Shown: positions 1,766 through 46,694, counted from the stretch's first letter. The stretch is DNA of 64,000 nucleotides from Candidatus Thorarchaeota archaeon (GCA_029858305.1 JAOUFI010000006.1:9851-73850); one strand, 5' to 3'. The notes: generated by a model from the sequence alone, not told the origin. Translations and numbers: made by a program.

Positions 1766-3793
1766 TTAATCCTCATCTTCACCTGAATCGACGAAATCTA
1801 GTAGACGACTCAGTTCATCTAATGATTCATTATTTATAGGTGAGTTCTCAGAGTGCTGCTTAGTGTCATTAGAATCTTTTTTCTTGGTTCCACCTACAGC
1901 ACTATCCAGAGGGCCGAGAATAAGCTCTAACTCCTCAAGTGACTCGGCATCAATCTCTTCTCGAATGTCGGACTCCCCCTCGGTAGGAGTAGCCTCATCA
2001 CTCTTAAATGCTTCAAGAGCTTCATCGATTTCAGTATGAGAAACAAGATCAAGTTCTGCGGAGATGAATTCATCGGCCTCGAGAGCTTCGAATATAATTT
2101 CTTTGGCCATTTTTACGCCTCCGTTGTTTTCTTCAGCAATCGGTTCTATTCCGAGTTTCTCTTCAGGTGGAAGTTCCTCTTCAGCAAAATCGATTTGTGG
2201 TAATTGTTCTTCTACTTCTATCGAAGATTCTTCCTTTGGCAATTCAATGGAAATATCCATGGAGATTTCATCAATCTCTTTCGACTCCTCCATGTGGGAG
2301 GGTTCAAATCCTTCACCCTCTTCCAATTGCATGCCTGTCGCAAAAGCATCTTCTTCTGTAGTCTGGTCCGGTCCTATTGCTTCACTGAGAGCATCAGCTT
2401 TAGCAAGTTCGACTTCTTGGTGTATCAAATGTTCCTCAGAGAACTCTACTTCTAGAGGAAATGATTGAATCTCTGCTTCAAGCGGAGATACAGAGATTTC
2501 TACTTCCTCCTCTACTTCCTTAGTTTCCTCTATAATGGCCTCAGGAATCGGTTCAGAAGATGCAATCTCATCTTCGACTTTTACTTCAGGCTCGGGTTCA
2601 AAGAATTCTACTTCCGCCTCTGCTTCCTCAATCTCCTCTAACATCACATCAGGAGCTAGTTCCGGAGAAACAATCTCTTCTTTTGTTTCTTCTTCTTCAA
2701 AGAGATCTTCATCTACTTCTTCAATGACTTCTTCAATTATCTCATAGTCATTTAGGTTCTCAATGACATGTCCATCTTCGTCAACCAAGACTTCCTCGAC
2801 CACTTCAATAGTCTCGAATTCAGATTCTTCAATCTCTGCAGTTTCCCTTCGTTCCTGCATCGCATCTGTCTCAGCTATCGCTTCCTTGGTTGCGGCATCT
2901 GTAAACTTCAAGAGCTCGGATGCCGGAAGATCCGGAAGAGCAACACCAACATATTGTGCTGCAGCAGTCATCAAAATCCTTAGCATCTCATCACGCCTAG
3001 CCTTGTCAATTGCAACCATTGGAAAGGTAGGAATTCCTAGTATCTTCTGAACGACCTCAGGTTTCATAGCGTTTGGTTTATCCTGTTTATTAGCCAGAGC
3101 AAAGACGGGAACCTTCGGAGCGTCTCGTTTAATGAGCTTGAGAATGTCCTTACTGATTATCACGTTACGAAGAGCTGAATCACAAACTAAGAAGATTACA
3201 TCAGCTCCATGGAAATAGAATCGCCATAGTGTTCGAAAGCGCTCTTGTCCTGCAAAATCCCAGAGGACAAGACTGTAGTTGCCAAATCTGATGTTTTCAA
3301 CAGTTTCAAGATTGAGAGCTATTGTTGGGACATATTGCAGTGGTGGTGTGTCTCCAAGTAAAAGGTGGAGTGTTGTTGTTTTTCCAACACCACCCTCTCC
3401 AACTAGCGCAATTTTCAATCTGGTGGTCACAGATGGTTCAACAAGTTTTTCATACCCTTGCTTCACAGCGTCAAGTCCTGATTTTTTCAGCTCCTTTCTC
3501 ATGAGCTTCGATGCAGCTTCAACCTTCTCGAATATGCTTGATTCGTCTTCTCCTTTATCAGTAACAAACAGTAAAAGAAGGTCTGAAACCAAGTCCACTC
3601 CATGAAACTTGTGATCTCCTAATATTAGTGCTAGACTTTCTAGATGCGTATCATTGCTCTTTTCAGAACGAAGTTCTTCCCTTGTTTTGACATATTCGCT
3701 AAGAATCTCATGTGACACATCAACGGGCCAATATTTAGTGAATGCAATTATTTCTTGTGTTGAGATGCGTATAAGGAAGGTGTTGTGAATCAC
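1766..3793 (-). CDS. Arf-related small GTPase with N-terminal longin-like domain and long acidic C-terminal tail
   Basis: G1 GEGGVGKTT, G2 PTI, G3 WDFAGQ followed by RTLWRFYF, G4 ANKQD; ~125-aa N-terminal domain; ~380-aa Glu-rich tail. Confidence 0.85.
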   Translation of the reverse strand: MIHNTFLIRISTQEIIAFTKYWPVDVSHEILSEYVKTREELRSEKSNDTHLESLALILGDHKFHGVDLVSDLLLLFVTDKGEDESSIFEKVEAASKLMRKELKKSGLDAVKQGYEKLVEPSVTTRLKIALVGEGGVGKTTTLHLLLGDTPPLQYVPTIALNLETVENIRFGNYSLVLWDFAGQERFRTLWRFYFHGADVIFLVCDSALRNVIISKDILKLIKRDAPKVPVFALANKQDKPNAMKPEVVQKILGIPTFPMVAIDKARRDEMLRILMTAAAQYVGVALPDLPASELLKFTDAATKEAIAETDAMQERRETAEIEESEFETIEVVEEVLVDEDGHVIENLNDYEIIEEVIEEVDEDLFEEEETKEEIVSPELAPDVMLEEIEEAEAEVEFFEPEPEVKVEDEIASSEPIPEAIIEETKEVEEEVEISVSPLEAEIQSFPLEVEFSEEHLIHQEVELAKADALSEAIGPDQTTEEDAFATGMQLEEGEGFEPSHMEESKEIDEISMDISIELPKEESSIEVEEQLPQIDFAEEELPPEEKLGIEPIAEENNGGVKMAKEIIFEALEADEFISAELDLVSHTEIDEALEAFKSDEATPTEGESDIREEIDAESLEELELILGPLDSAVGGTKKKDSNDTKQHSENSPINNESLDELSRLLDFVDSGEDED

Positions 3794-12188: not shown

Positions 12189-12725
12189 TTATTGTAGTGT
12201 GTATTTAGCCAACATATAGAATGCGTTTTCTACATTTTGCCCCGATAGAGCACTGGTTTCCAAATAGCCCGATAGGGCATTTTCCTCAACAAACTGCAGC
12301 GCCATTTCTCTCGTAATTACTCGATGTTCAACCAAATCAACTTTGTTCGCTAGCAGGATGATAGGAATCCTTTCACCAAGAGCATCCTCAGTTTCTTGAA
12401 TCCACTTTGGTAACTCGATCCATGTACTCTTTCTTGTACAGTCAAATAGAAGTAGAGCTCCTTTGCTTCCTCTATAATAGCTTCCACGAATGAAATCAAA
12501 ACGCTGTTGTCCTGCTAAGTCCCAGACGAGAAGCTTGACAACAACATTGCGACCATTTGCAGTTTCAACCTCGACAGTCTTTACAGCAAATTGCGAACCG
12601 ATAGTGACGATGTACTCTTCAGAGAACTTGTGGGTCAGGAAACGGTTGACTAGTGCGGTCTTTCCACTACCTCCTGCTCCGATCATCACGACCTTCCGCA
12701 TATAGTCGAAACCGCCACTACTCAA
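12189..12725 (-). CDS. Rab-like small GTPase
   Basis: GAGGSGKT, TIG, WDLAGQQRF, SYYRG, NKVD, ETSAL. Confidence 0.92.
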   Translation of the reverse strand: MSSGGFDYMRKVVMIGAGGSGKTALVNRFLTHKFSEEYIVTIGSQFAVKTVEVETANGRNVVVKLLVWDLAGQQRFDFIRGSYYRGSKGALLLFDCTRKSTWIELPKWIQETEDALGERIPIILLANKVDLVEHRVITREMALQFVEENALSGYLETSALSGQNVENAFYMLAKYTLQ

Positions 12726-28072: not shown

Positions 28073-28876
28073 TTATTGTACTAGGATATCCATACTGATT
28101 ATTGCAGACCGCGCCCAATCTGTGAGTATGACTGGTTTTTCACGACCAAATACTTTGATGGATCGAAGAATATCAGCCTTCAAGAGACTACTAGTGTAGT
28201 AAGAAATCAAACTCTTGTCAACATCAAGAACCTTGCTAATCTCAGCTTGAGTTGTCTGTCCATTCTTCACACACTCTGAGAGGATTGATCCTACCGTAGG
28301 ATTTCGAGAGAGTGCGGTCAGCAGAAGAACTCTATCCTCAAATGAGAAATCACTTGGAAAGATATGCCGTACATTTCCATATCTAATTGAAACTACCTCT
28401 CCCGCATTTTCCAAGTTGTTGATGTGATATTGCAGCGCACCCATTGCACATCCTATATTTCTATGAAGCTCGCGCAAATGTATGCCTGGATTCGCGACGA
28501 CTTCATCAACAATTCTATCACGTAGTTTGAGAGCTTTCCGGTCCCTTGTTCGTTCTACAGCTATTGTACCAATAATTAACGCAAATAATCCAATGTCCAC
28601 TGACTGAGTTGTCCAATGCACCCAATAGTTAATTGTGCCAATAGCAGACTGAGAAATGGCATCTAGTGTGAAATTAATTGTACCACTACTTACAGTCGCA
28701 AGTGTAAATCCAAGATCTAGAGCAACCTGATTATTGTTTTGCGTGATTGGTAAACTCGGAGAAACAGAATCCAAGTTACCAAAACCTGATTCTGATAGAG
28801 CCAAGCCAACTATACCCCAAGTGATAAGGAGAAAAGAGAGTCCAATCAGGATTTTTTTAGTGAAATGGCTGCTCAT
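28073..28876 (-). CDS. Membrane-anchored winged-helix transcriptional regulator
   Basis: Two TM segments, then NPGIHLREL....G.LQYH HTH and a second HTH (QAEISK.L.V.KS.ISYY). Confidence 0.75.
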   Translation of the reverse strand: MSSHFTKKILIGLSFLLITWGIVGLALSESGFGNLDSVSPSLPITQNNNQVALDLGFTLATVSSGTINFTLDAISQSAIGTINYWVHWTTQSVDIGLFALIIGTIAVERTRDRKALKLRDRIVDEVVANPGIHLRELHRNIGCAMGALQYHINNLENAGEVVSIRYGNVRHIFPSDFSFEDRVLLLTALSRNPTVGSILSECVKNGQTTQAEISKVLDVDKSLISYYTSSLLKADILRSIKVFGREKPVILTDWARSAIISMDILVQ

Positions 28877-28947: not shown

Positions 28948-29502
28948 TTATGTACTGCTTCGTGCAGGATACGTGAGTGTGATTTTAAATGTGCAGGACT
29001 CGGCACCAGCGGATATACATGTTTCTTCACTAACAATTAGTTTTTCATACTCGATTCTGTTGAAATCTGTAAGATATTCAAGAACCGCTTCGATGAAACC
29101 TTTTAGAAAGTAACACGAAGGTTCTTCACTCTCATACCCAGAGGCATAGGGATTATTTCCCACCTCTATTATTGCTTCTTCATCAAGCCACAATTTGTAT
29201 AGCTTGGAAATTTTAATGTCACCAAAAGGAACAATCAAAGTTTCTAAAGTCATCTTAATGAACTCGACTATACCCTTAAAGTCGCCAGGAGGCTTTTGTT
29301 TACCCACCTTGAAATATTCTCGTTGAGCTTCAAGACCTGCAAGACGACCTGCGGAATAATACAAATCACGTACTCGATCCGGAAACATTACAGCAATTCG
29401 GCTGCCAATCTTGTTCCAGGTCTTAGCAAAGAACGCGGACATTAAATCACGTTCTTTTAGGCGACCTTGCCACCACGGAATCACCCGTTCCTCTTTTGAC
29501 AT
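28948..29502 (-). CDS. V4R domain protein
   Basis: Y..G...G, NPY......P.CYF.KGF...V, EETCISAG..SC.F.I. Confidence 0.8.
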   Translation of the reverse strand: MSKEERVIPWWQGRLKERDLMSAFFAKTWNKIGSRIAVMFPDRVRDLYYSAGRLAGLEAQREYFKVGKQKPPGDFKGIVEFIKMTLETLIVPFGDIKISKLYKLWLDEEAIIEVGNNPYASGYESEEPSCYFLKGFIEAVLEYLTDFNRIEYEKLIVSEETCISAGAESCTFKITLTYPARSST

Positions 29503-29563
29503 TGGAGAGTCCTCTAACTAATGATTCTACATGCAATTGCGTTAAGTGCTTTGTTGTTATATT

Positions 29564-30046
29564 TTACACTAGACGCACATTCCAGACACACATGCTTGCA
29601 CCTGTCGCACGGGATTGCTCTTGAAAGACCCTTGCATCCACACCCTTGACTTCAAGGATTGACTCAAGGATGCCACTGAAGACCTCACAATACCCAAAAC
29701 CACGCATACCCTCAAGATTCACATCTTGACACCAAACACAGCTATGATCACTAATGCGGACAGATCCTCGAGCTGTCTTCATGTCAACATCAGCAGGACG
29801 TTTATCGTATAGAATCTTAAAGACAACTTCAATCAGTTTTGCAACGTCCTCACGCGTCGTAACGCTCTCCTTAGTTTTCTCTACAATTTCTGTGTTAAGG
29901 TATATCTGTCGACCAATCTCGTAGCCAAGGTCACGCAGCTTCTGATTTGCTTCATCGATATTTGTTGTTCCAGATAGTATGTTGTCAACGTAGTATGAGT
30001 AGAGGCTCACCAGTAGTGGATTTTCTATCTTTGGCATTTCAGGCAC
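29564..30046 (-). CDS. Bet3/TRAPPC3-like V4R protein
   Basis: Y...V........DEANQKLRDLGYEIG.QI resembles the Bet3 helices; CxWC, YC..FSG.LE, C.W. Confidence 0.7.
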   Translation of the reverse strand: MPEMPKIENPLLVSLYSYYVDNILSGTTNIDEANQKLRDLGYEIGRQIYLNTEIVEKTKESVTTREDVAKLIEVVFKILYDKRPADVDMKTARGSVRISDHSCVWCQDVNLEGMRGFGYCEVFSGILESILEVKGVDARVFQEQSRATGASMCVWNVRLV

Positions 30047-30059
30047 CTATTAGTTATTC

Positions 30060-31064
30060 TTAGACAGTTCTGCCAATCATCTTTAACCCAGCTTTTCTAT
30101 ACTTGGCTATTGTCTGAACGACCTTGGGGATTGGCAAGTTGAGTTTTTCAGCGATTTGCTCGGGTGTCAGATTTCCGTCACACAATCTGATTAATTGGAT
30201 GTCTTCATTTGAGACCTTTGAGGTATCACCATCAAACATTGGACATTTTACATACTTTCCAATGGATGTACCTGCAGCGACAAACTTGGGGCTTTCATCT
30301 AATATTGGAACGTCAATTATGCCTTGTGAAGCAGTCCATTTCAGAAGATCTATGATCCTGTCGATTGGTTGGAACATTGAATCCGCAATCTTCTCAACAG
30401 AATTATTACCATCGACAAGCATTAGTACGTCAAAACCAAAGTTGCGATAGAGTACTTTCATCTCATTATAAAGTGCAGAGTCTAGTAAGAGAGAATTAGC
30501 ATATTCGGAGCCTCTTTCGGGAACTGTTATTGGCGTGATGTTGAAATCCTTGGATGACAGTTTTTTCGCAGGCTTACTGGGAACTTCTGGAGCTGGCTTG
30601 GACTCCTCTGGAGGCGGGACAACCACTGGGGATGGTACAACAGATGCTGCTTTGATGGCAATGCTTTCCAGAACTTGAATATTCATCTCAGAGGAGTCTT
30701 CAAAATCTTCAGGAGGCGGTGGAAGTTCAATGCCCTCGAGAAGACGTAGAACATTCTTTGTCTTGGCAATAGCAAGTCCCAGTTGAAGTTCAGGTACATA
30801 TAGAACCGTTAGAATCCAATTTTCATCAACAGGAGAAAGAACTACGAGTCCTTTCTCAGTATCGATGGTCATCAAACGCAAGTCAGCCTTGTAGAGTTTA
30901 ATGCTGTCTTTTATTCTTGGAAACAGCTCGTCAGGAAATGCGAAACTGACAAAGGGTCTACCTATCTTTGTCATCAGAGAATAACCCAAAACCTGATCAT
31001 CAAATCGTAGTTTAGACAAAGCACGCTCCAAATCTTTGGACATAAGATAACACCTCACGAGCAC
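30060..31064 (-). CDS. Roadblock/longin-like N-domain + Pro-rich linker + two winged helices (paralog of 32911-33870)
   Basis: LERALSKLRFDDQVLGY.L.T..G.PF.SF; LPPPP; two (V/C)DG..(S/T)...IA HTH motifs. Confidence 0.55.
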   Translation of the reverse strand: MLVRCYLMSKDLERALSKLRFDDQVLGYSLMTKIGRPFVSFAFPDELFPRIKDSIKLYKADLRLMTIDTEKGLVVLSPVDENWILTVLYVPELQLGLAIAKTKNVLRLLEGIELPPPPEDFEDSSEMNIQVLESIAIKAASVVPSPVVVPPPEESKPAPEVPSKPAKKLSSKDFNITPITVPERGSEYANSLLLDSALYNEMKVLYRNFGFDVLMLVDGNNSVEKIADSMFQPIDRIIDLLKWTASQGIIDVPILDESPKFVAAGTSIGKYVKCPMFDGDTSKVSNEDIQLIRLCDGNLTPEQIAEKLNLPIPKVVQTIAKYRKAGLKMIGRTV

Positions 31065-31219
31065 TAGCGTGACCAGGACCTGCTCGTATAATCTCTATTT
31101 TTGAGAGTCATCTGAAAAGGATTGTGGTGCTGGAATTTGATTTCTTTATTGAGTTCATTCGAAAACTGTTAAGAGGGACCGACCAACATCAATGAGGTCA
31201 GTTGTCCAGAGGAGATTCA

Positions 31220-31801
31220 ATGAGAAATTTTGCTGGTGGTTTCATAGGGATTATCGTTGGTTCCTTTTCATTGGTCATTTTAGCTGGAATATTACCATCT
31301 CAGCCCTCATACCCAGACCCGTTCAACGCAATATGGTTTTTGCTAGCTGGATCTTGGGTGTTTCAGTCAACTCTTCAGGAACTAGTCAATATGACTTTAG
31401 CAGGACCATTGTTACTATCGTGGTTGATCATTGGTATCGTTATTGCTCCTTTTTCTCGGAAGGGATGGAATCTTCTTAGGTCGACACTATGGGTGGCAGT
31501 GTTTCTAACAATTTTCGCATTAATTTTTCAGGTATTAGAGAATCCATCTTTTTGGGATGTTAATCTGAATCCGACGAGGAACTACGATCTGATATTCCAA
31601 TTTGCTACATCCATAGTCGTATCTCTCTTTGCCCTTCCAAGTGCAATCCCAATCACAATTACCATTGAGAGAGCACGCCAGACCGGAGAGCAACCGATTC
31701 CAGAGAAGATTGAAACAATATGTGAGTGTGGAGCTATTTTCAAATCAAATCCAATTATTTGCTCAGAGTGCGGCCGTATCTTGAGAATGTTGGAGAATTA
31801 A
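31220..31801 (+). CDS. Membrane protein with C-terminal zinc ribbon
   Basis: 4-5 TM helices; CECG...CSECG. Confidence 0.7.
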   Translation: MRNFAGGFIGIIVGSFSLVILAGILPSQPSYPDPFNAIWFLLAGSWVFQSTLQELVNMTLAGPLLLSWLIIGIVIAPFSRKGWNLLRSTLWVAVFLTIFALIFQVLENPSFWDVNLNPTRNYDLIFQFATSIVVSLFALPSAIPITITIERARQTGEQPIPEKIETICECGAIFKSNPIICSECGRILRMLEN

Positions 31802-32316
31802 CGGTCCCTGGTTATACCCCCACCAAGAATACCACCAATTACACACGCAATCGCAGGATAGATTGCTCCTTCGAGTGCAACTTCCATCAGGATCAATGAG
31901 CCAGGTGCGAAAATAGCTGCGATATCAAAACCCGGGGATATCACAAGAACTAACAACCATGTCAGAAACGCACCTATGATTGCCGCAAAGACTGCAGCTA
32001 GAATTGCAGGTAAGAAGTCTTTTGACATAAGACCTGCAATTAGACCACCAGTGCCCCATGCTAGGAACATGAGGACAGAGGCACCAATAGCACCATAACC
32101 CAATACACCGCCAAGACCGGGACCTGCTAGGGCAGAAGGATAGAGTATCGTTCCAACCACAGCCAATCTGAATTCAAGATCACTATAATTTAGAAATTCT
32201 TGCACAACGGTGGGTGAAATTAAATCAGCTGGCATGTAGTTACCAAATGTCATGACGACGAACGTGATAGCGAATGCAGTTATGAGCCCAAATATCGTAC
32301 CTAGACCTTGACCCAA
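31798..32316 (-). CDS. Gly/Ala-rich integral membrane protein
   Basis: 4-5 hydrophobic helices with GxxxG motifs. Confidence 0.65.
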   Translation of the reverse strand: MGQGLGTIFGLITAFAITFVVMTFGNYMPADLISPTVVQEFLNYSDLEFRLAVVGTILYPSALAGPGLGGVLGYGAIGASVLMFLAWGTGGLIAGLMSKDFLPAILAAVFAAIIGAFLTWLLVLVISPGFDIAAIFAPGSLILMEVALEGAIYPAIACVIGGILGGGITRDR

Positions 32317-32397
32317 TCATTAGGCCTCCATGTAAGGTGCATATACGATATTTTCTCGCTTATTGTTTTATACCTATTCCAGATGGCTACAAGGGTA

Positions 32398-32904
32398 CTA
32401 TTCCCTGAGATTGAGAGTCCAAGTGCACGTATCGTCACCTAGAGCTTTGCATGACTCCTGATAGCTCTCAGCTGAAAAACCACGCAATTTCATGACTGCA
32501 TCAAAGACTCCACTCACAATCACACAGTACTGAAGACCAGGCATGTCCGAGATTACAACACCTTCACAAATTGGGCAGGCATCATCAGTGAATTTGATTG
32601 TCTTCTTGTCTTTGCTAATGTCGATTTTGGTGAAAAATTGCCCAGAGTTCACCTTGTATGCTAGTTGTAGTGTCTTTGAGAATGTTGCAAAGTCTACAGC
32701 ATGCTCTCGTATCCTATCTGCATAGTCCATGAGAAGAGTTTCACCGACTCGAAAGCCGATGTCTTTCATCTTTCGATTGATCTCTTCGACACTGCCACTT
32801 GTACTCATGACTAGATTCATGAGTTCTCGATAGCTGGCTTGGAAGAGAACTTTCGAAACTTTAGTCGTCATTAGATTCCACGCGATTTTTCCCTTTACAC
32901 TCAT
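32398..32904 (-). CDS. Bet3/TRAPPC3-like protein
   Basis: KVSKVLFQASY..L......EEINRKMKDIGFRVGE.LL.DY aligns by eye to the Bet3 N-terminal half; CPIC, YC..VSG, ESC...GDDTC. Confidence 0.75.
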   Translation of the reverse strand: MSVKGKIAWNLMTTKVSKVLFQASYRELMNLVMSTSGSVEEINRKMKDIGFRVGETLLMDYADRIREHAVDFATFSKTLQLAYKVNSGQFFTKIDISKDKKTIKFTDDACPICEGVVISDMPGLQYCVIVSGVFDAVMKLRGFSAESYQESCKALGDDTCTWTLNLRE

Positions 32905-32910
32905 TTCGTT

Positions 32911-33870
32911 TTATTCTCCTGATTTCTTGTCAACACGTACCATTCTAAGAGTTTTTCCGCGATAGGGGAGAATACTCTGTAATGCATTAAAGTATTGTAT
33001 GCCTAGCTCTGCTGATATTTCCTGTAGGGTTCGTGTTCCATCACAGAGCGCGAGGAGTTGGCGATGTTCTTTCTTTACTTTATCAAGCTTGCCTTCAAAG
33101 AGCGGTAACTCTACGATTTCTTTCAGACTTGTTTCTTGCGCATCGGGACAGTCTACGTCGACTATCTTTTCTGCAATACACCATTTTACGACGTCCATGA
33201 CTCTTTCGACAGGTTTAGTTAAACTTGTAGCTATCTTATAGATCGTCATCTTTTCATCTATGACTAATAGTATATCAACGCCCAGATTTGCATAGGCTTT
33301 CTTGAGAGCAAGATTCAGACTTGATTCAAGAGTCATAGCATCTCTGTATCTCTCACCTCTAAGAAGAACACATCCATGGGTTAATTCCATGACTTCCATT
33401 GGTTTAGATTTGATATCAGCCACGGAAGTGACAACATCTCCTTCAAGAGTTTCTATTGAAACCTCAAGTAAATCTGGCTCAACGGTTTCAGAGATGAGAT
33501 TGTCTTCTAACTCAACTGGGATAGGAGGCGGTGGTAGGGCTACTTGTTCTAAGAGCTCAACGACTGATTTTGCTCTAGAGAGTGCTGTGCCTAGTGTGAG
33601 CTCTGGGCTGAAAAGAACTGCAAGAACCCATTGGGGATCAACTCGTGCTAAGATAACGCTTCCTTGACTGGTCATAATGTTGACAAGTTTAAGGTCAGCA
33701 GCATGAATCCGCAGGGTGCCTTTAATCTGTGGGACAACTTCGTCTGGAAGTGAGAAAGAGAGGAATGGTTGGCCATCATTGGTGATCAGTGCATAACCGG
33801 TAACCGACTCATCGAATTTCAGCTTCGTGAGTACGCGCTCTAATTCCAATTGATTCACCAAACCTCGCAA
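32911..33870 (-). CDS. Roadblock/longin-like N-domain + Pro-rich linker + winged helices (paralog of 30060-31064)
   Basis: LERVLTKLKFDESVTGY.LIT..GQPF.SF; LPPPP; LCDGTRTLQEIS HTH. Confidence 0.55.
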   Translation of the reverse strand: MRGLVNQLELERVLTKLKFDESVTGYALITNDGQPFLSFSLPDEVVPQIKGTLRIHAADLKLVNIMTSQGSVILARVDPQWVLAVLFSPELTLGTALSRAKSVVELLEQVALPPPPIPVELEDNLISETVEPDLLEVSIETLEGDVVTSVADIKSKPMEVMELTHGCVLLRGERYRDAMTLESSLNLALKKAYANLGVDILLVIDEKMTIYKIATSLTKPVERVMDVVKWCIAEKIVDVDCPDAQETSLKEIVELPLFEGKLDKVKKEHRQLLALCDGTRTLQEISAELGIQYFNALQSILPYRGKTLRMVRVDKKSGE

Positions 33871-35025: not shown

Positions 35026-35475
35026 CTAGACTTTCTTGAGTGCTGCTTTTACCATTTCTGTGATACGGTCTTCTGGGATTCCAGTCTTGTTTGCAACTTT
35101 CGCAATGTCACAGTAAGCAAGATCGGAAACAGTCTTGAGACCAGCCTTTGCTAGAAGTTTGGCTTCTTCATCCTTCACAGCTTTTAGTGCAGAGAGCTCA
35201 TCAACAGCCTTGGCAACTGATGCCGTAGCAGTACTCTCTTCAGTAGCTAGAGCCGCAACAAATTCCTCAAGATCTTTCTGATACTGTTTTAATGCTTCGA
35301 CATTCTCAGGATATGCAGTTTTCCTTCGGATATCAACAATTAGACCCATCTTACGAGCATCAACAACTGTGAGTCCAGATTGAATTGTTTCCTCTATACT
35401 AAAACCACGGCCACGTCTGGGTTTGGCATCTTTTGGTGACCTCACAACTGGTTCGGCAATAATATCAAAGCTCAT
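35026..35475 (-). CDS. rpl13e: 50S ribosomal protein L13e with C-terminal HhH-like extension
   Basis: P.VR.P..R.GRGFS.EE..GL....AR..G..VD.RRK..ENV..L; start at MSFD. Confidence 0.9.
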   Translation of the reverse strand: MSFDIIAEPVVRSPKDAKPRRGRGFSIEETIQSGLTVVDARKMGLIVDIRRKTAYPENVEALKQYQKDLEEFVAALATEESTATASVAKAVDELSALKAVKDEEAKLLAKAGLKTVSDLAYCDIAKVANKTGIPEDRITEMVKAALKKV

Positions 35476-35554
35476 TGATTCATCCACCTGACACGGCTTC
35501 GAGCCTTCGGACCACTTATCAAGCTTTCGAGATGGCAAAATAAAGAGGAGAGAT

Positions 35555-36370
35555 TTAGATAAAATCATCAAGTGACATTTGTCTTATTGCTTCACCATCT
35601 AGCATCTTCAATAATTTTCGTTCTTGGTGTTGATTGATTGTACCTAAGAGAGATAGCATCTGAAGTGCGTTCAAAGGAGCGTTTCCTGCGAAATGATTAT
35701 TGAAATACCCCAAGACAAGGTTTACATTATTCGTCAAATCCTCCAGGCGAGGAAGCCATTCCTTGAGTTCTTCAAGTGAATATCTGTAGTTGTACCATAA
35801 CCCTTCATTTTGACCGTGCCACCGTACATATGAAAAATCAGTTGTTATTCGGAGGTCAATAGGGAGCTTTGGTTCATCAACGATGACATGAGCGATATTA
35901 TATTGCTCTAATAGACTCCAGACAGACTCTATCAACCAGCTATGGTGTCTGAACTCGATTGCGTACCGATACGCAGGGTTGAGTGCAGCAAAAAAGGTCT
36001 CAAGATTAGCCATGGTCGATATCTCCCAGGGTGGTAACTGAATGAGCAGAACATCAATACGGTTTTCAATCGGTCGTAGAAGTTGATAATACTCATCAAG
36101 AACTGCACCACCCTCTCCGGTGAGGTCGAGTCGATGGTCATGTGTTACTTTCTTGGGTAATTTGGCTGTGAAGAACTTATTGGGATCAAGACTAGCCAAG
36201 TGTTTAATGAAAGTGGGTTTGGGTAGAGCGTAGAATGTCGAATTAATCTCTGCCGTGTCGAAGTAGAGCAAGTATTGATGGAGCATGGATCTACCGGAGG
36301 TATAGAAAACACCTTTCCAATCCTTTCCATATGACCATCCACTGGTACCGATATGAAGCCCCTTTCTCAT
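35555..36370 (-). CDS. DUF72 (YecE) family protein
   Basis: IGTSGWSY, EINSTFY, QLPP, EFRH.SW, YVR.HG, YFNNH. Confidence 0.92.
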   Translation of the reverse strand: MRKGLHIGTSGWSYGKDWKGVFYTSGRSMLHQYLLYFDTAEINSTFYALPKPTFIKHLASLDPNKFFTAKLPKKVTHDHRLDLTGEGGAVLDEYYQLLRPIENRIDVLLIQLPPWEISTMANLETFFAALNPAYRYAIEFRHHSWLIESVWSLLEQYNIAHVIVDEPKLPIDLRITTDFSYVRWHGQNEGLWYNYRYSLEELKEWLPRLEDLTNNVNLVLGYFNNHFAGNAPLNALQMLSLLGTINQHQERKLLKMLDGEAIRQMSLDDFI

Positions 36371-44858: not shown

Positions 44859-46694
44859 TTGGTGTTAGATAAAGGAGAAACAGCAACCTTGACCTCTGAA
44901 GATGAACTCCTCAAAGAAGCAAGAAAGATACTCGAAGAGGGCAATAAGGAAGAGGGAGTGAAAAAACTTCTGAAAGTTGCTGAGAAATTAGAAGGAAAAA
45001 CAGAGTACGACCAAGCTGCAAAGCTCTACGAGGAGGCTGCTCTGATATACAGAGATTTGTATCATGCAGATGAATGCTTCAAAATGTTCGATAAAGCCAC
45101 TATTATGATGATTAGAATGCCCCAAAGCCCAGAGGTCTATAAAGAGATAGTACGACTAAACATGACTGCAGCCAAGATTGCAGAGGTGGCAACTGAGCAC
45201 AAGAAAGCTGCGGATTTCTATTTTAGGGCAAAAGATTTCGCAATGACTGATGAAGAGAAAAACAACCTCAATATACGCGCAGCTGATGCCTTAGAGAATA
45301 TTGCAGATATAATGGAGGAGAAGGAGAACTTCTCTGAAACGGTAAGCCTCTTGCGGAAGGTAGGCAGGCTCTATTATACCGCGGGTGATGATGAGCTCGG
45401 AGCAAGAATTAACGATAGAGCAGTTAGAGTAGCTCAAAGATGGGCAAATATCTCTAAGAGCAAGGGTGATTATGTATCAGCTGGGAATGCACTCGCAGAA
45501 GCAGCGCAAATCATGCAAACAATCGGTGAATCTCCCGAAGCTACACGCACCATGATGGAGGCAGGAGACTTCTACGAAGCAGCCCAGCTCTTTGAAAAAG
45601 CTGGAAACATCTATGATGCTGCGCAAGAAGCCTATAAACTTCAGCGGCTTACCTCTGCAAGAAATCAAGCACTAGCAAAAGCTGCGGAAGCCTATCTAAA
45701 GATGGAAGGAAAGCCAGAGGCTGTAGCACCGCTCCTAGTTAAGGGAGGCAATATGTTCAACGAGATAGGGCGTGTTATGAAAGCCAAATGGGCATTCAAA
45801 CGAGCGAGTGAGATGTTTGATGAATTAGCGAAGAAGGCATCAAACGAGAGAGACACTGAGTCAGAGAAAAAGTACCTTAGATATCAAGCAATGTGTTTGA
45901 AAATGTGGGGATATGAAGACCAAGCTAAGGAAATCTATACAAATGTGACCGAATTTTATCTCGGACAAGCTCAGGATCAGAGTAAGGCAGGTGACAAGGA
46001 GCTTCAAGCTGTCGCACTAGAGGAGGCTGCAGAAGTATTTCTAGAGTCAGGACAGACTGACGAGAGCAACATGTACATCGAGCAAGCAATTAACCTATAC
46101 GTAGAACTTGCAGAGGAAAAATCGTCTCCTGAGGATTCTGAGGCTGCATCAAAGCTCTACAGCAAAGCTGCAGATTGCGCAATACGACTCAGCGACAGTG
46201 AGAGAAATGAAACTTATCATGGGATGGCTAGTGAGAAAGCAGAACAAGCTGCTGAATTCTACAACCAGCTTGGAGTGCCAGAATTATCTACAATCTGGAT
46301 TCGGACTGCAGGAACAGAAGCGCTCCAAACTAATTCCAAAGAAATGCTTGAGAAAGCAATCAATCTACTTGAAAAATCCGCAGAGGGATTCAAAGCAGCT
46401 AATGCACTAAAAGAATCATTCGAAGACCTATTTCTGGTGTTTGAAACACGATTCATGCATTATCCTGAAAAACGACGACCAATTAAACAAACAATATCCT
46501 CAATGGATGAGATTGCTAAAATATTGCTAGATGATATCATTAATGCATTGATGTCTCTGATTCGTGCATTAAATGAAGGGAATCATATTGGCGCTCTTCT
46601 CATTCTGCAGGAAAATGAAGAAGATCTATTAGAAAAGGCAGATAGAATCCGGAAGATGATAGCTCAATCTAAAGTCGTGCGTGCCGCGAAATAG
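44859..46694 (+). CDS. Long alpha-SNAP/TPR-like repeat protein
   Basis: Many A..Y/F..AA..Y helical repeats across 611 aa. Confidence 0.7.
   Translation: MVLDKGETATLTSEDELLKEARKILEEGNKEEGVKKLLKVAEKLEGKTEYDQAAKLYEEAALIYRDLYHADECFKMFDKATIMMIRMPQSPEVYKEIVRLNMTAAKIAEVATEHKKAADFYFRAKDFAMTDEEKNNLNIRAADALENIADIMEEKENFSETVSLLRKVGRLYYTAGDDELGARINDRAVRVAQRWANISKSKGDYVSAGNALAEAAQIMQTIGESPEATRTMMEAGDFYEAAQLFEKAGNIYDAAQEAYKLQRLTSARNQALAKAAEAYLKMEGKPEAVAPLLVKGGNMFNEIGRVMKAKWAFKRASEMFDELAKKASNERDTESEKKYLRYQAMCLKMWGYEDQAKEIYTNVTEFYLGQAQDQSKAGDKELQAVALEEAAEVFLESGQTDESNMYIEQAINLYVELAEEKSSPEDSEAASKLYSKAADCAIRLSDSERNETYHGMASEKAEQAAEFYNQLGVPELSTIWIRTAGTEALQTNSKEMLEKAINLLEKSAEGFKAANALKESFEDLFLVFETRFMHYPEKRRPIKQTISSMDEIAKILLDDIINALMSLIRALNEGNHIGALLILQENEEDLLEKADRIRKMIAQSKVVRAAK

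Follow-up and report, generated by a model that had tools for sequence, protein, structure and literature searches.

Duplicated pairs of roadblock-winged-helix and TRAPPC3/Bet3-family genes in Thorarchaeota: a candidate heteromeric regulatory module

The core of the eukaryotic TRAPP complex, a Rab1/Rab11 guanine nucleotide exchange factor (GEF), comprises Bet3/TRAPPC3, TRAPPC5, and TRAPPC6 along with the longin subunits TRAPPC1, TRAPPC4, and TRAPPC2. In the literature, TRAPPC3-like proteins from Asgard archaea figure as forerunners of membrane trafficking in eukaryotes. The sole protein-level study (Tran, Akil, Senju, Robinson 2024; PMC10933270) described Thor-TRAPPC3 (PDB 7YH3 and 7YH2), a Zn(Cys)4 homodimer that most resembles TRAPPC3 and for which the authors proposed ligand binding. 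The consulted portions of that paper handle the protein alone and mention neither an upstream roadblock-winged-helix gene nor a second paralogue. The Bet3-like protein itself is thus already crystallized and published; the conserved, duplicated, and occasionally fused pairing reported here changes the picture by giving it a testable partner, the upstream roadblock-winged-helix protein.

Among the known platforms for GTPases are roadblock and longin domains. The actinobacterial conservon/Mfp operon encodes the roadblock protein MfpD, which reportedly acts as a GTPase-activating protein (GAP), the DUF742 protein MfpC, the Ras-like GTPase MfpB, and a histidine kinase. The mycobacterial DUF742 helix-turn-helix protein MfpC was reported to be the GEF of the Ras-like GTPase (PMC11343762). 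In the archaeon MK-D1, GTPase genes generally do not occur in operons with roadblock, longin, or TRAPPC3 genes, according to the portions of PMC10933270 consulted.

Two paired-gene cassettes in a thorarchaeal locus

The window, the whole 64,000-nucleotide stretch analyzed here (Candidatus Thorarchaeota archaeon, GCA_029858305.1 JAOUFI010000006.1:9851-73850), contains two ancient paralogous two-gene cassettes, each encoding an adaptor of ~315 to 330 amino acids and a zinc-(Cys)4 protein of the TRAPPC3/Bet3 family. In cassette A, the gene for partner A (32911..33870, minus strand; 319-aa ORF) is separated by 6 bp from that for Bet3A (32398..32904, minus strand; 168-aa ORF). In cassette B, partner B (30060..31064, minus strand; 334-aa ORF) is separated by 13 bp from Bet3B (29564..30046, minus strand; 160-aa ORF), and a gene for an ordinary V4R-domain protein follows (28948..29502, minus strand; 184-aa ORF). 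An earlier note on this DNA had listed these five minus-strand ORFs and spacings, and all were recovered. Translation of partner A probably starts at a GTG at 33858 because its database relatives are 315 aa long; the start of partner B is likely the ATG at 31043, ~45 nt downstream of an AT-rich TATA-like stretch. The duplication claimed in the same note was borne out by BLASTP: partners A and B share 35% identity over their full lengths (E 7e-71), and Bet3A and Bet3B are paralogues with 21% identity (E 6e-25). Only two copies of each gene were found in the organism's own genome (3.04 Mb, 89% complete), where a six-frame search with Pfam TRAPP returned scores of 42.5 and 27.0 bits.

Two conserved membrane proteins are encoded between the cassettes. 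TM172 (31798..32316, minus strand) is glycine-rich with ~5 predicted helices and matches no Pfam family; it was found in 45 of 50 thorarchaeal loci, and the remaining 5 loci end before reaching it. TMZn199 (31202..31801, plus strand) has ~4 helices, ends in a zinc-ribbon-like tail (CxC...CxxC), is convergent with TM172 and divergent from partner B, and was found at 44 of the 50 loci. A TMZn199 relative also adjoins a roadblock-winged-helix homologue in family f14 (phmmer 5.6e-9 and 1.3e-4), and no Bet3 gene adjoins that homologue. Beyond the ordinary V4R gene lies a membrane-anchored, double winged-helix-turn-helix (wHTH) regulator of the HVO_0163 type (28073..28876, minus strand; Pfam HTH_HVO_0163_N, 54.5 bits), a conserved neighbor in Thorarchaeia only that is absent at non-thorarchaeal loci; whether it belongs to the module is doubtful.

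Family assignment of the Bet3-like proteins and their partners

Both small cassette proteins scored above the Pfam TRAPP (PF04051) cut-off of 27 bits, Bet3B clearly (42.9 bits) and Bet3A marginally (27.4 bits). By sequence, Bet3B is the Thor-TRAPPC3 orthologue (7YH3 at E 7.9e-85; 7YH2 at 1.4e-81), and by this orthology it has the two-layer alpha/beta fold, dimerizing through the N-terminal helices, that was described for the crystallized protein. Its single-sequence search reached eukaryotic TRAPPC3/Bet3 chains only at 0.019 to 0.8, and a profile of 30 Bet3A orthologues matched Thor-TRAPPC3 at 1.2e-27, eukaryotic TRAPPC3/Bet3 chains at 7.3e-10 to 1.9e-6, and TRAPPC6 at ~0.03, with no V4R sensor chain, bacterial ones included, among its structure matches at E ≤ 10. 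In the tree, 40 Bet3-like rows stood apart from 4 V4R rows (support 100/100, branch length 3.86). Pfam, profile search, and tree thus agree in placing Bet3A and Bet3B in the TRAPPC3/Bet3 family and not among ordinary V4R sensors. The Bet3 motif quoted in the earlier note is present in Bet3A, and the cysteine sets of the three small proteins do differ, with counts of 5, 4, and 3 in Bet3A, Bet3B, and the ordinary V4R protein; the five in Bet3A are invariant (CPxC, YC, SC, C-W), and the four in Bet3B form the Zn site. The earlier note had counted the third gene among three V4R paralogues. Its V4R assignment holds (Pfam V4R 36.5 bits, cut-off 31; best PDB match the archaeal V4R protein MJ1460 at 0.0019), but it is an ordinary V4R protein, with a separate clade and a BLASTP E value of 0.46 against Bet3B. 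Both Thorarchaeia and family f2 keep this gene downstream of cassette B.

Partner A comprises a roadblock domain (residues ~2-107), a PPPP motif, a strongly acidic disordered linker (~119-160), and two winged helices (~168-240 and ~252-314), and partner B has the same architecture. In the AF2 model of partner A (mean pLDDT 79.5), the N-terminal domain has the predicted topology alpha-beta-beta-alpha-beta-beta-beta-alpha, that of a roadblock. Foldseek matched this domain to Asgard roadblocks, LAMTOR2, and MglB at E ~1e-6 (roadblock matches at E 1.3e-6 to 1e-4, target TM 0.63-0.74), and VIA-align superposed the partner on roadblock structures with Z 12.7-11 and rmsd 2.3-2.9 Å over 102-112 residues. 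These results support a roadblock fold plus two winged helices for the partner, whose N-domain differs in topology from the sybindin/sedlin longin found in the TRAPP core. The Pfam Robl_LC7 (PF03259) cut-off of 23 bits was not reached by partner B (12.3 bits, E 0.14), and partner A gave no match at E ≤ 1. Against curated cut-offs of 27.1 bits for HTH_47 (PF16221) and 27 bits for DUF742 (PF05331), partner A scored 15.2 and 14.9 bits, respectively, and partner B scored 25.1 bits for HTH_47; at E ≤ 0.1, all 30 family members compared matched HTH_47, and 24 of these 30 matched DUF742. By these sub-threshold scores, the last winged helix resembles both families and is a member of neither. Partner A has 286 relatives, every label present being Thor/Sif, and our literature search found no paper characterizing the partner or describing its pairing with Bet3.

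These assignments bear on a rival explanation, in which the pair is a transcription regulator split over two proteins: the Bet3/V4R fold would detect a hydrophobic ligand or the redox state with its cavity and Cys/Zn site and relay the signal to the roadblock-winged-helix protein, whose basic last winged helix would bind DNA to control nearby genes. PoxR-type regulators use V4R-fold domains as ligand sensors, the ligand binding proposed for Thor-TRAPPC3 (PMC10933270, consulted in part) fits such a role, and all three small proteins weakly match NCBIfam MsvR (E 0.0007-0.017). With a median pI of 9.3, the last winged helix is basic and hence a potential DNA binder, and it shows weak matches to Sigma70_r4 (26 of 30 members), TrmB (13 of 30), and HTH_47; the first winged helix and linker, however, are acidic. 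Candidate targets lie at hand in Thorarchaeota, where cassette B is followed by the ordinary V4R gene, the membrane wHTH regulator, and an ABC transporter, but these are not kept outside Thorarchaeota, where the pair alone is kept. With the GTPase associations described below also counting against it, we consider this explanation somewhat unlikely. If true, it would reveal a new split sensor-regulator built from eukaryotic-looking parts and would urge caution in assigning trafficking functions to Asgard signature proteins.

Conservation of the pairing and its association with GTPase genes

The earlier note had claimed that the pairing was retained through duplication, and this is supported: among informative Thorarchaeota loci, cassette A is kept as a pair at 43 of 46 and cassette B at 38 of 38, and the pairing recurs outside Thorarchaeia too. 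Across 400 surveyed genomes of the phylum, a full-length partner was present in 82/85 genomes of family f1 and 1/1 of f2, and Pfam TRAPP in 78/85 and 1/1, respectively. In one thorarchaeal subgroup, partner A persists with no intact Bet3A: at the 3 other cassette A loci, Bet3A is reduced to its last ~35-40 codons, and at a further locus it is interrupted by an in-frame stop. An 11-gene neighborhood, from L13e to the ABC transporter, is frozen throughout Thorarchaeota, so synteny within this group is weak evidence by itself.

Altered forms of the pairing occur in four further Asgard families. Their N-terminal domains vary among roadblock, longin, and small types; the constant element, common to the Asgard versions, is the last winged helix (hhalign Prob 96.8 and 95.9). 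The partner-Bet3-V4R order is found at the single f2 locus (1/1). A winged-helix protein lies immediately 5' of a Bet3-like gene in f16 (251-252 aa; 7/7 loci) and of a Bet3A-type gene in f14 (159-188 aa; 12/12 loci). Family f30 has the order Bet3-Bet3-(224-244 aa) at 5/5 loci and (209 aa)-Bet3 at 2/2, and its partner version has longin topology, with TRAPPC1 and synbindin among the Foldseek matches. A fused version is found in f31, where a single 296-aa ORF encodes a longin domain of the f30 type (Prob 99.3, E 1e-20) together with a Bet3-like domain.

The frozen neighborhood, together with the persistence of partner A where Bet3A has decayed, would suit a second rival, that the two proteins are neighbors without contact, kept together for co-expression or by genomic inertia, with the Bet3-like protein serving as a lipid or ligand carrier and the adaptor being unrelated. 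Partnerless Bet3-like genes also exist, as tandem or single genes with no adjoining partner at 7 loci of f15 and as a second Bet3 type in f14 (adjoining partner at 0/5 loci), and the crystallized orthologue is a stable homodimer by itself (PMC10933270, consulted in part). Yet the pair is found again in five families whose other neighbors differ, has outlasted at least two separate duplications, and is closely spaced in the window, with stop and start overlapping at some non-thorarchaeal pairs; a longin-Bet3 fusion also exists in f31. We regard the absence of contact as very unlikely. With both pairs recurring across Thorarchaeota, the gene arrangement far exceeds chance, and the module is real and conserved.

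No GTPase gene was found inside the block in the window or within ~6 kb of the cassettes in 50 thorarchaeal loci, and no kinase gene in the block in the window or at the same 50 loci. The f30 pair is immediately preceded by two or three co-oriented genes for Ras-family GTPases, and in f2 a divergent small GTPase gene adjoins the partner; the orthologue of the latter lies on the same contig as the thorarchaeal cassettes, ~33 kb away. These associations, the general role of roadblock and longin domains, and the lack of any winged helix in the f31 fusion all argue against the sensor-regulator explanation.

A candidate regulatory complex and its relation to known systems

The module is probably heteromeric, and a GTPase-regulator or proto-TRAPP role is plausible. 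We judge the chances to be about even that the adaptor and the Bet3-like protein of each cassette act as one heteromeric regulatory complex and that pairing of the A and B roadblocks provides a small-GTPase platform. The most likely docking site for the Bet3-like dimer on the adaptor would be the last winged helix, since no other portion of the adaptor is retained across all the Asgard versions. Pairing between the A and B roadblock domains would resemble that of roadblock/longin domains in MglB, Ragulator, and NPRL2/3, and the resulting platform would regulate a small GTPase, possibly at a membrane beside TM172 and TMZn199. Binding, stoichiometry, the GTPase client, and activity (GEF versus GAP) are properties that we infer for such a complex. 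The existence of an Asgard TRAPP-like GTPase regulator thereby becomes an experimental question with named proteins.

To our knowledge, no TRAPP core subunit has winged helices. The cassettes are like the TRAPP core in combining several Bet3-family paralogues with a protein of the roadblock/longin superfamily, the likeness being extended in f30 by its longin partner and adjoining Ras-family GTPase genes. They differ in that the thorarchaeal partner has roadblock topology plus two winged helices. A more far-reaching reading is that the pair is the thorarchaeal form of an Asgard-wide, sometimes fused, Bet3 plus roadblock/longin module, a prokaryotic forerunner of the TRAPP core acting as a Ras/Rab-like exchange factor, with the cassettes forming a Bet3-paralogue heteromer on a roadblock heterodimer that foreshadows the TRAPPC3/C5/C6 plus longin layout; we think this unlikely. 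Relative to Thor-TRAPPC3, Bet3B shares the four-Cys zinc site and the TRAPPC3-like two-layer alpha/beta fold expected of an orthologue, and Bet3A is a paralogue with 21% identity to Bet3B.

V4R sensor regulators (PoxR-type; MsvR) share with the pair the V4R/Bet3 superfold and Cys-bound zinc; in Thorarchaeota, however, the sensor fold and the helix-turn-helix reside on separate proteins, and the Bet3-like clade stands apart from the V4R gene of the same locus. As in the conservon/Mfp operon, a roadblock domain occurs with a DUF742/HTH_47-like helix-turn-helix, but the thorarchaeal partner fuses the two, its DUF742 match is below the Pfam cut-off, a Bet3-like protein is added, and the block has neither the GTPase nor the kinase gene of such an operon. 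The Ragulator LAMTOR2/3 and MglB roadblock dimers are also comparable, LAMTOR2 and MglB being top matches for the partner N-domain.

NPRL2/NPRL3 (GATOR1; Npr2/Npr3 of SEA) likewise have an N-terminal roadblock/longin domain, C-terminal winged helices, and two paralogues, as do the partners, which could heterodimerize. The partner N-domain is a roadblock, however, and not a longin. Foldseek listed NPRL2/3 chains for both partner models, with low TM-scores (0.19-0.38) and an rmsd of 15-24 Å over the full length; for the thorarchaeal model, matches to NPRL2/3 and to Npr2 had E 8e-6 to 5e-5 and TM 0.19-0.23, and VIA-align gave Z 10.7-10.9 and rmsd 16-19 Å. Pfam NPR2/NPR3 did not match the partners and was equally silent in control genomes. 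An NPRL2-like family in most Thor MAGs, noted in the consulted part of Liu et al. (10.1101/2020.10.19.343400), may or may not be the partner family. In overall build, the partner resembles NPRL2/3, or a roadblock joined to a DUF742-like helix-turn-helix, more closely than it does any TRAPP subunit.

The cassettes and their surroundings in the window

The ORF listing of the window contained all five minus-strand genes of the earlier note, namely partner A (32911-33870, 319 aa) with Bet3A (32398-32904, 168 aa), partner B (30060-31064, 334 aa) with Bet3B (29564-30046, 160 aa), and a third small gene (28948-29502, 184 aa) that encodes a Pfam V4R protein. The intergenic gap is 6 bp within the first pair (cassette A) and 13 bp within the second (cassette B). 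A full-length alignment of the two partners shows 35% identity (E 7e-71), and the two Bet3-like proteins share 21% (E 6e-25); BLASTP similarity between the third small protein and Bet3B was not significant (E 0.46). The three small proteins do differ in their Cys sets, with counts of 5, 4, and 3. Each cassette gene is present in exactly two copies in the genome of origin (3.04 Mb, 205 contigs, 89% complete), all of them inside the window.

The window is Asgard-like in content: besides ribosomal protein L13e, its products include a Ras-family GTPase (12189-12725) and an Arf/Roc protein of 675 aa (1766-3793). The L13e protein (gene at 35026-35571) ends in a helix-hairpin-helix/DUF4332-like extension. 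Its gene is followed directly by PfkB and partner A, and because the successive gaps are only 31 and 23 bp, cassette A may be co-transcribed with L13e. A scan for bacterial-type promoters and terminators yielded 19 promoter-like sites where 17.6 were expected; such a scan carries no information for an archaeal host. A sub-region of a 611-aa protein (44859-46694) matched the TPR family of SNAP, the soluble NSF attachment protein (E 1.8e-9). The region from 31202 to 32316 encodes, on opposite strands, two small polytopic membrane proteins that belong to no Pfam family: TM172 (31798-32316, minus strand, ∼5 predicted helices) and TMZn199 (31202-31801, plus strand, ∼4 helices and a Cys-rich, zinc-ribbon-like tail). 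Both were found between the cassettes in every Thorarchaeota locus that extends that far. In family f14, a TMZn199 relative and a 160-aa glycine-rich membrane protein adjoin a roadblock-winged-helix homologue (locus L066, 10764-11893).

Bet3-like proteins and the partner fold

The proposal that the small proteins are of Bet3 type, rather than ordinary V4R sensors, held for Bet3A and Bet3B and failed for the third protein, as judged by Pfam, profile matches to solved structures, and a phylogenetic tree. Against the Pfam TRAPP model (curated cut-off 27 bits), Bet3B scored 42.9 bits and Bet3A a marginal 27.4 bits; the third protein scored 36.5 bits against V4R, above the cut-off of 31. Bet3B is the orthologue of the crystallized "TRAPPC3 from Thorarchaeota SMTZ1-45" (PDB 7YH3, E 7.9e-85) and "AB25" (7YH2, E 1.4e-81). 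A Bet3A profile built from 30 orthologues (mean column identity 78%), in which five Cys are invariant, matched this Thor-TRAPPC3 with E 1.2e-27 and eukaryotic TRAPPC3/Bet3 chains with values of 7.3e-10 to 1.9e-6 (TRAPPC6, ∼0.03), and no bacterial V4R chains were among its solved-chain matches. The best solved relative of the third protein was the archaeal V4R protein MJ1460 (0.0019). In a tree of 44 rows (24 non-Thorarchaeota Bet3-like proteins, 4 V4R proteins, and only 8 orthologues each of the Thorarchaeota A and B types), Bet3-like and V4R rows separated with 100/100 support. Type A formed a single clade (94/91) and type B joined two types from f30 (94/94, flagged for long branches), a grouping that hints at, without proving, an A/B split older than Thorarchaeia. 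A 2026 preprint describes an Asgard structural cluster with TRAPPC5/C6, separate from the TRAPPC3 cluster, and this cluster may correspond to the second Bet3 paralogue.

Passages of Tran et al. 2024 (PMC10933270) describe Thor-TRAPPC3 as a Zn(Cys)4 homodimer whose nearest structural relative is eukaryotic TRAPPC3 and which contains internal cavities; its authors suggested ligand binding. That suggestion and the V4R ancestry of Bet3-like proteins are in line with the main rival to a GTPase-regulating complex, in which the Bet3-like protein would be the sensor and the partner the DNA-binding regulator of a split sensor-regulator pair.

The partner gave only sub-threshold Pfam matches (HTH_47, DUF742, Sigma70_r4, and Robl_LC7). 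Its AlphaFold2 model (30-sequence alignment, mean pLDDT 79.5) comprises an N-domain (residues 2-107) of topology alpha-beta-beta-alpha-beta-beta-beta-alpha, a disordered stretch (119-160), and two winged-helix units (168-240 and 252-314); a PPPP motif is invariant. The roadblock fold suspected in the earlier note was recovered for the predicted N-domain by Foldseek, which returned Asgard roadblock proteins, LAMTOR2, and MglB (E 1.3e-6 to 1e-4, target TM 0.63-0.74), and by VIA-align (Z 12.7-11, rmsd 2.3-2.9 Å over 102-112 residues). Such a domain fits the sensor-regulator alternative less well, as do the longin domains found in other families. Charge varies between the domains: the linker, with a median charge of -14.6, is strongly acidic, the first winged helix close to neutral, and the last winged helix, with a median pI of 9.3, basic, which agrees with that same alternative. 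EspG5, the sole sequence match of the partner profile in the PDB (E 0.18-0.22), was taken as noise.

The partner family is narrow in sequence searches. A word-indexed search retrieved 286 relatives, all from Thorarchaeota or Sifarchaeia where labelled, some of which JGI has named Roadblock/LC7/MglB regulator. When 1.84 billion representatives were searched exhaustively with the profile, 41 proteins were retrieved at E<=0.001, 23 at 1e-10, and 11 at 1e-30. The closest clusters in a protein atlas were Thorarchaeota hypothetical proteins only. Full-length matches to NPRL2/NPRL3/Npr2 were geometrically poor (Foldseek TM 0.19-0.23; VIA-align Z ∼10.8, rmsd 16-19 Å). Pfam NPR2 had no match in the genome of origin, and the control genomes were silent as well. 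The sole HTH_NPRL3 match in this genome was not the partner but another protein of 300 aa with two winged helices, one of which reached 22.9 bits, below the cut-off (contig C156, 26722-27624; 1228-2130 of locus L108). The longin-plus-NPRL2-tail family that portions of Liu et al. (10.1101/2020.10.19.343400) report from most Thorarchaeota MAGs may be the partner, or may instead be this C156 protein.

Conservation of the pairing

We compared 50 named Thorarchaeota loci. Gene order was identical wherever the contig reached: L13e, PfkB, partner A, Bet3A, TM172, TMZn199 (opposite strand), partner B, Bet3B, V4R, a membrane winged-helix-turn-helix regulator, and an ABC ATPase. Partner A was followed by Bet3A at 43 of 46 informative loci and partner B by Bet3B at all 38. 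One subgroup is losing Bet3A while partner A stays, as judged from deletions that leave only the last ∼35-40 codons in L039 (6920-7800), L045 (3095-3740), and L053 (6655-7520), and from an in-frame stop near codon 22 in L030 (2990-4240). The broken genes are followed by 600-1200 bp that hold no long ORF and are apparently conserved among these loci; an Rfam search of this non-coding stretch gave no match. A survey of 400 genomes from the phylum found the partner profile matched in 82 of the 85 from the window's own family (f1) and in the single genome of f2, mostly with two matches ∼2.9 kb apart, and Pfam TRAPP matched 78/85 and 1/1, respectively. Since the entire neighborhood is frozen, synteny within Thorarchaeota is by itself weak evidence for a specific partnership, and synteny in other Asgard families is the stronger test.

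In those families the conservation of the pairing was partial: it extended to f2, f16, f30, and f14, and was absent in f15 and for a second Bet3 type of f14. Family f2, of the same order as the window's family, has a single partner-Bet3-V4R cassette. In f16, a 251-252-aa protein whose last winged helix matches that of the Thorarchaeota partner is encoded directly 5' of the Bet3-like gene at 7/7 loci (six genomes of one genus). One locus type of f30 has two Bet3 genes followed by a gene for a 224-244-aa protein (5/5 loci, with the winged-helix HMM passed in 4/5); the other has a 209-aa protein followed by a Bet3-like gene (2/2 loci). The 209-aa model (pLDDT 74) combines a longin domain (beta-beta-alpha-beta-beta-beta-alpha) with a winged helix, and its Foldseek matches were led by NPRL2/NPRL3/Npr2, followed by Zeta-COP, AP sigma, TRAPPC1/Bet5, synbindin, and Ykt6; its full-length match to Sybindin was weak (E 0.028). 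In f14, a class of its own with a Bet3A-type gene in all 19 genomes, a 159-188-aa protein, in which a small N-domain precedes the same winged helix, is encoded directly 5' of that gene at 12/12 loci. When the Thorarchaeota partner was compared by profile-profile alignment (hhalign) with the partner-like proteins of other families, f16 and f30 among them, the alignments covered the last winged helix alone, with Prob 96.8 at E 2.7e-10 and Prob 95.9 at E 6e-9, and no part of the N-domains. The last winged helix, with its conserved LCDG motif, is what constantly accompanies Bet3.

A 296-aa ORF in f31 (one genome, 4.9-kb contig) fuses a Bet3-like domain directly to a longin domain of f30 type (hhalign Prob 99.3, E 1e-20, 134 columns), resembling the Heimdall longin-TRAPPC3 fusion mentioned in passages of Tran et al. 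(PMC10933270). This arrangement, which lacks a winged helix, is a poorer fit to a sensor with a DNA-binding regulator. A search for longer, fused proteins with the Bet3 profile returned none at E<=0.001, which is weak evidence; the f31 fusion came to light by genome search.

As counter-examples, no partner adjoins the Bet3 genes of f15 (four tandem pairs and three singles), the second f14 Bet3 type has a partner at 0/5 loci, and an f14 homologue of the Thorarchaeota partner with a roadblock domain and one winged helix lies beside membrane-protein relatives with no neighboring Bet3 gene. Because genomes within each family are close kin, the independent observations amount to about seven locus types, not dozens. 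KaiC-like ATPases are encoded in f15 and f16 (L085, 2498-3760; L086, 3001-4248; L077, 7172-7894; L078, 4903-5718), some fused to an XylR_N/V4R sensor module (415-420 aa) and others directly upstream of a lone Bet3-like gene.

GTPase association and relation to known systems

No GTPase gene occurs within the cassette block in the window or at the 50 Thorarchaeota loci. In f2, a small GTPase gene adjoins the partner and is divergently transcribed, and in the second f30 locus type the pair is immediately preceded by co-oriented Ras-family GTPase genes, three in L090 and two in L091. These neighbors, too, are less readily accommodated by the sensor-regulator alternative. At L090 (7050-9029), a MoxR-type AAA+ protein with a VWA domain is encoded after the GTPase, longin-winged-helix, and Bet3-like genes. 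The orthologue of the f2 GTPase in the genome of origin (contig C180, 5953-6654, E 1.2e-90) lies ∼33 kb from partner B and 3.2 kb beyond the window, and is followed in both genomes by the same two genes, for a TPR protein and a ∼1270-aa protein; it is a candidate client of the module and nothing more. The three-gene block kept between f1 and f2 (divergent small GTPase, TPR/SNAP-like protein, and ∼1270-aa protein with a PPC domain) occupies C180 1017-6654, 3-9 kb before the window start, and 8003-13695 of L068, and in f2 it abuts the partner-Bet3-V4R cassette.

Alongside the observed folds, paralogy, pairing, longin-Bet3 fusion, and GTPase adjacency elsewhere, we propose that a Bet3-like dimer would bind the last winged helix of the partner as its adaptor, that the roadblock domains of partners A and B would pair with each other, and that the assembly would regulate a small GTPase, perhaps at a membrane with TM172 and TMZn199. 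We have moderate confidence that the two cassette proteins act together and low to moderate confidence that they regulate a GTPase.

The module is real and conserved, and its parts are already known; no description of the partner-Bet3 pairing turned up in the full-text literature searched. A 2019 mBio paper on Loki- and Thorarchaeota mentions neither TRAPP nor V4R nor roadblock proteins, and Eme et al. 2023 mention TRAPP once, in passing. A precedent for reading the Thorarchaeota module as a GTPase regulator is the mycobacterial Mfp conservon, in which the DUF742 helix-turn-helix protein MfpC is reported to be the GEF (PMC11343762), and the roadblock protein MfpD is reported to be the GAP (PMC9769811), of a Ras-like GTPase.
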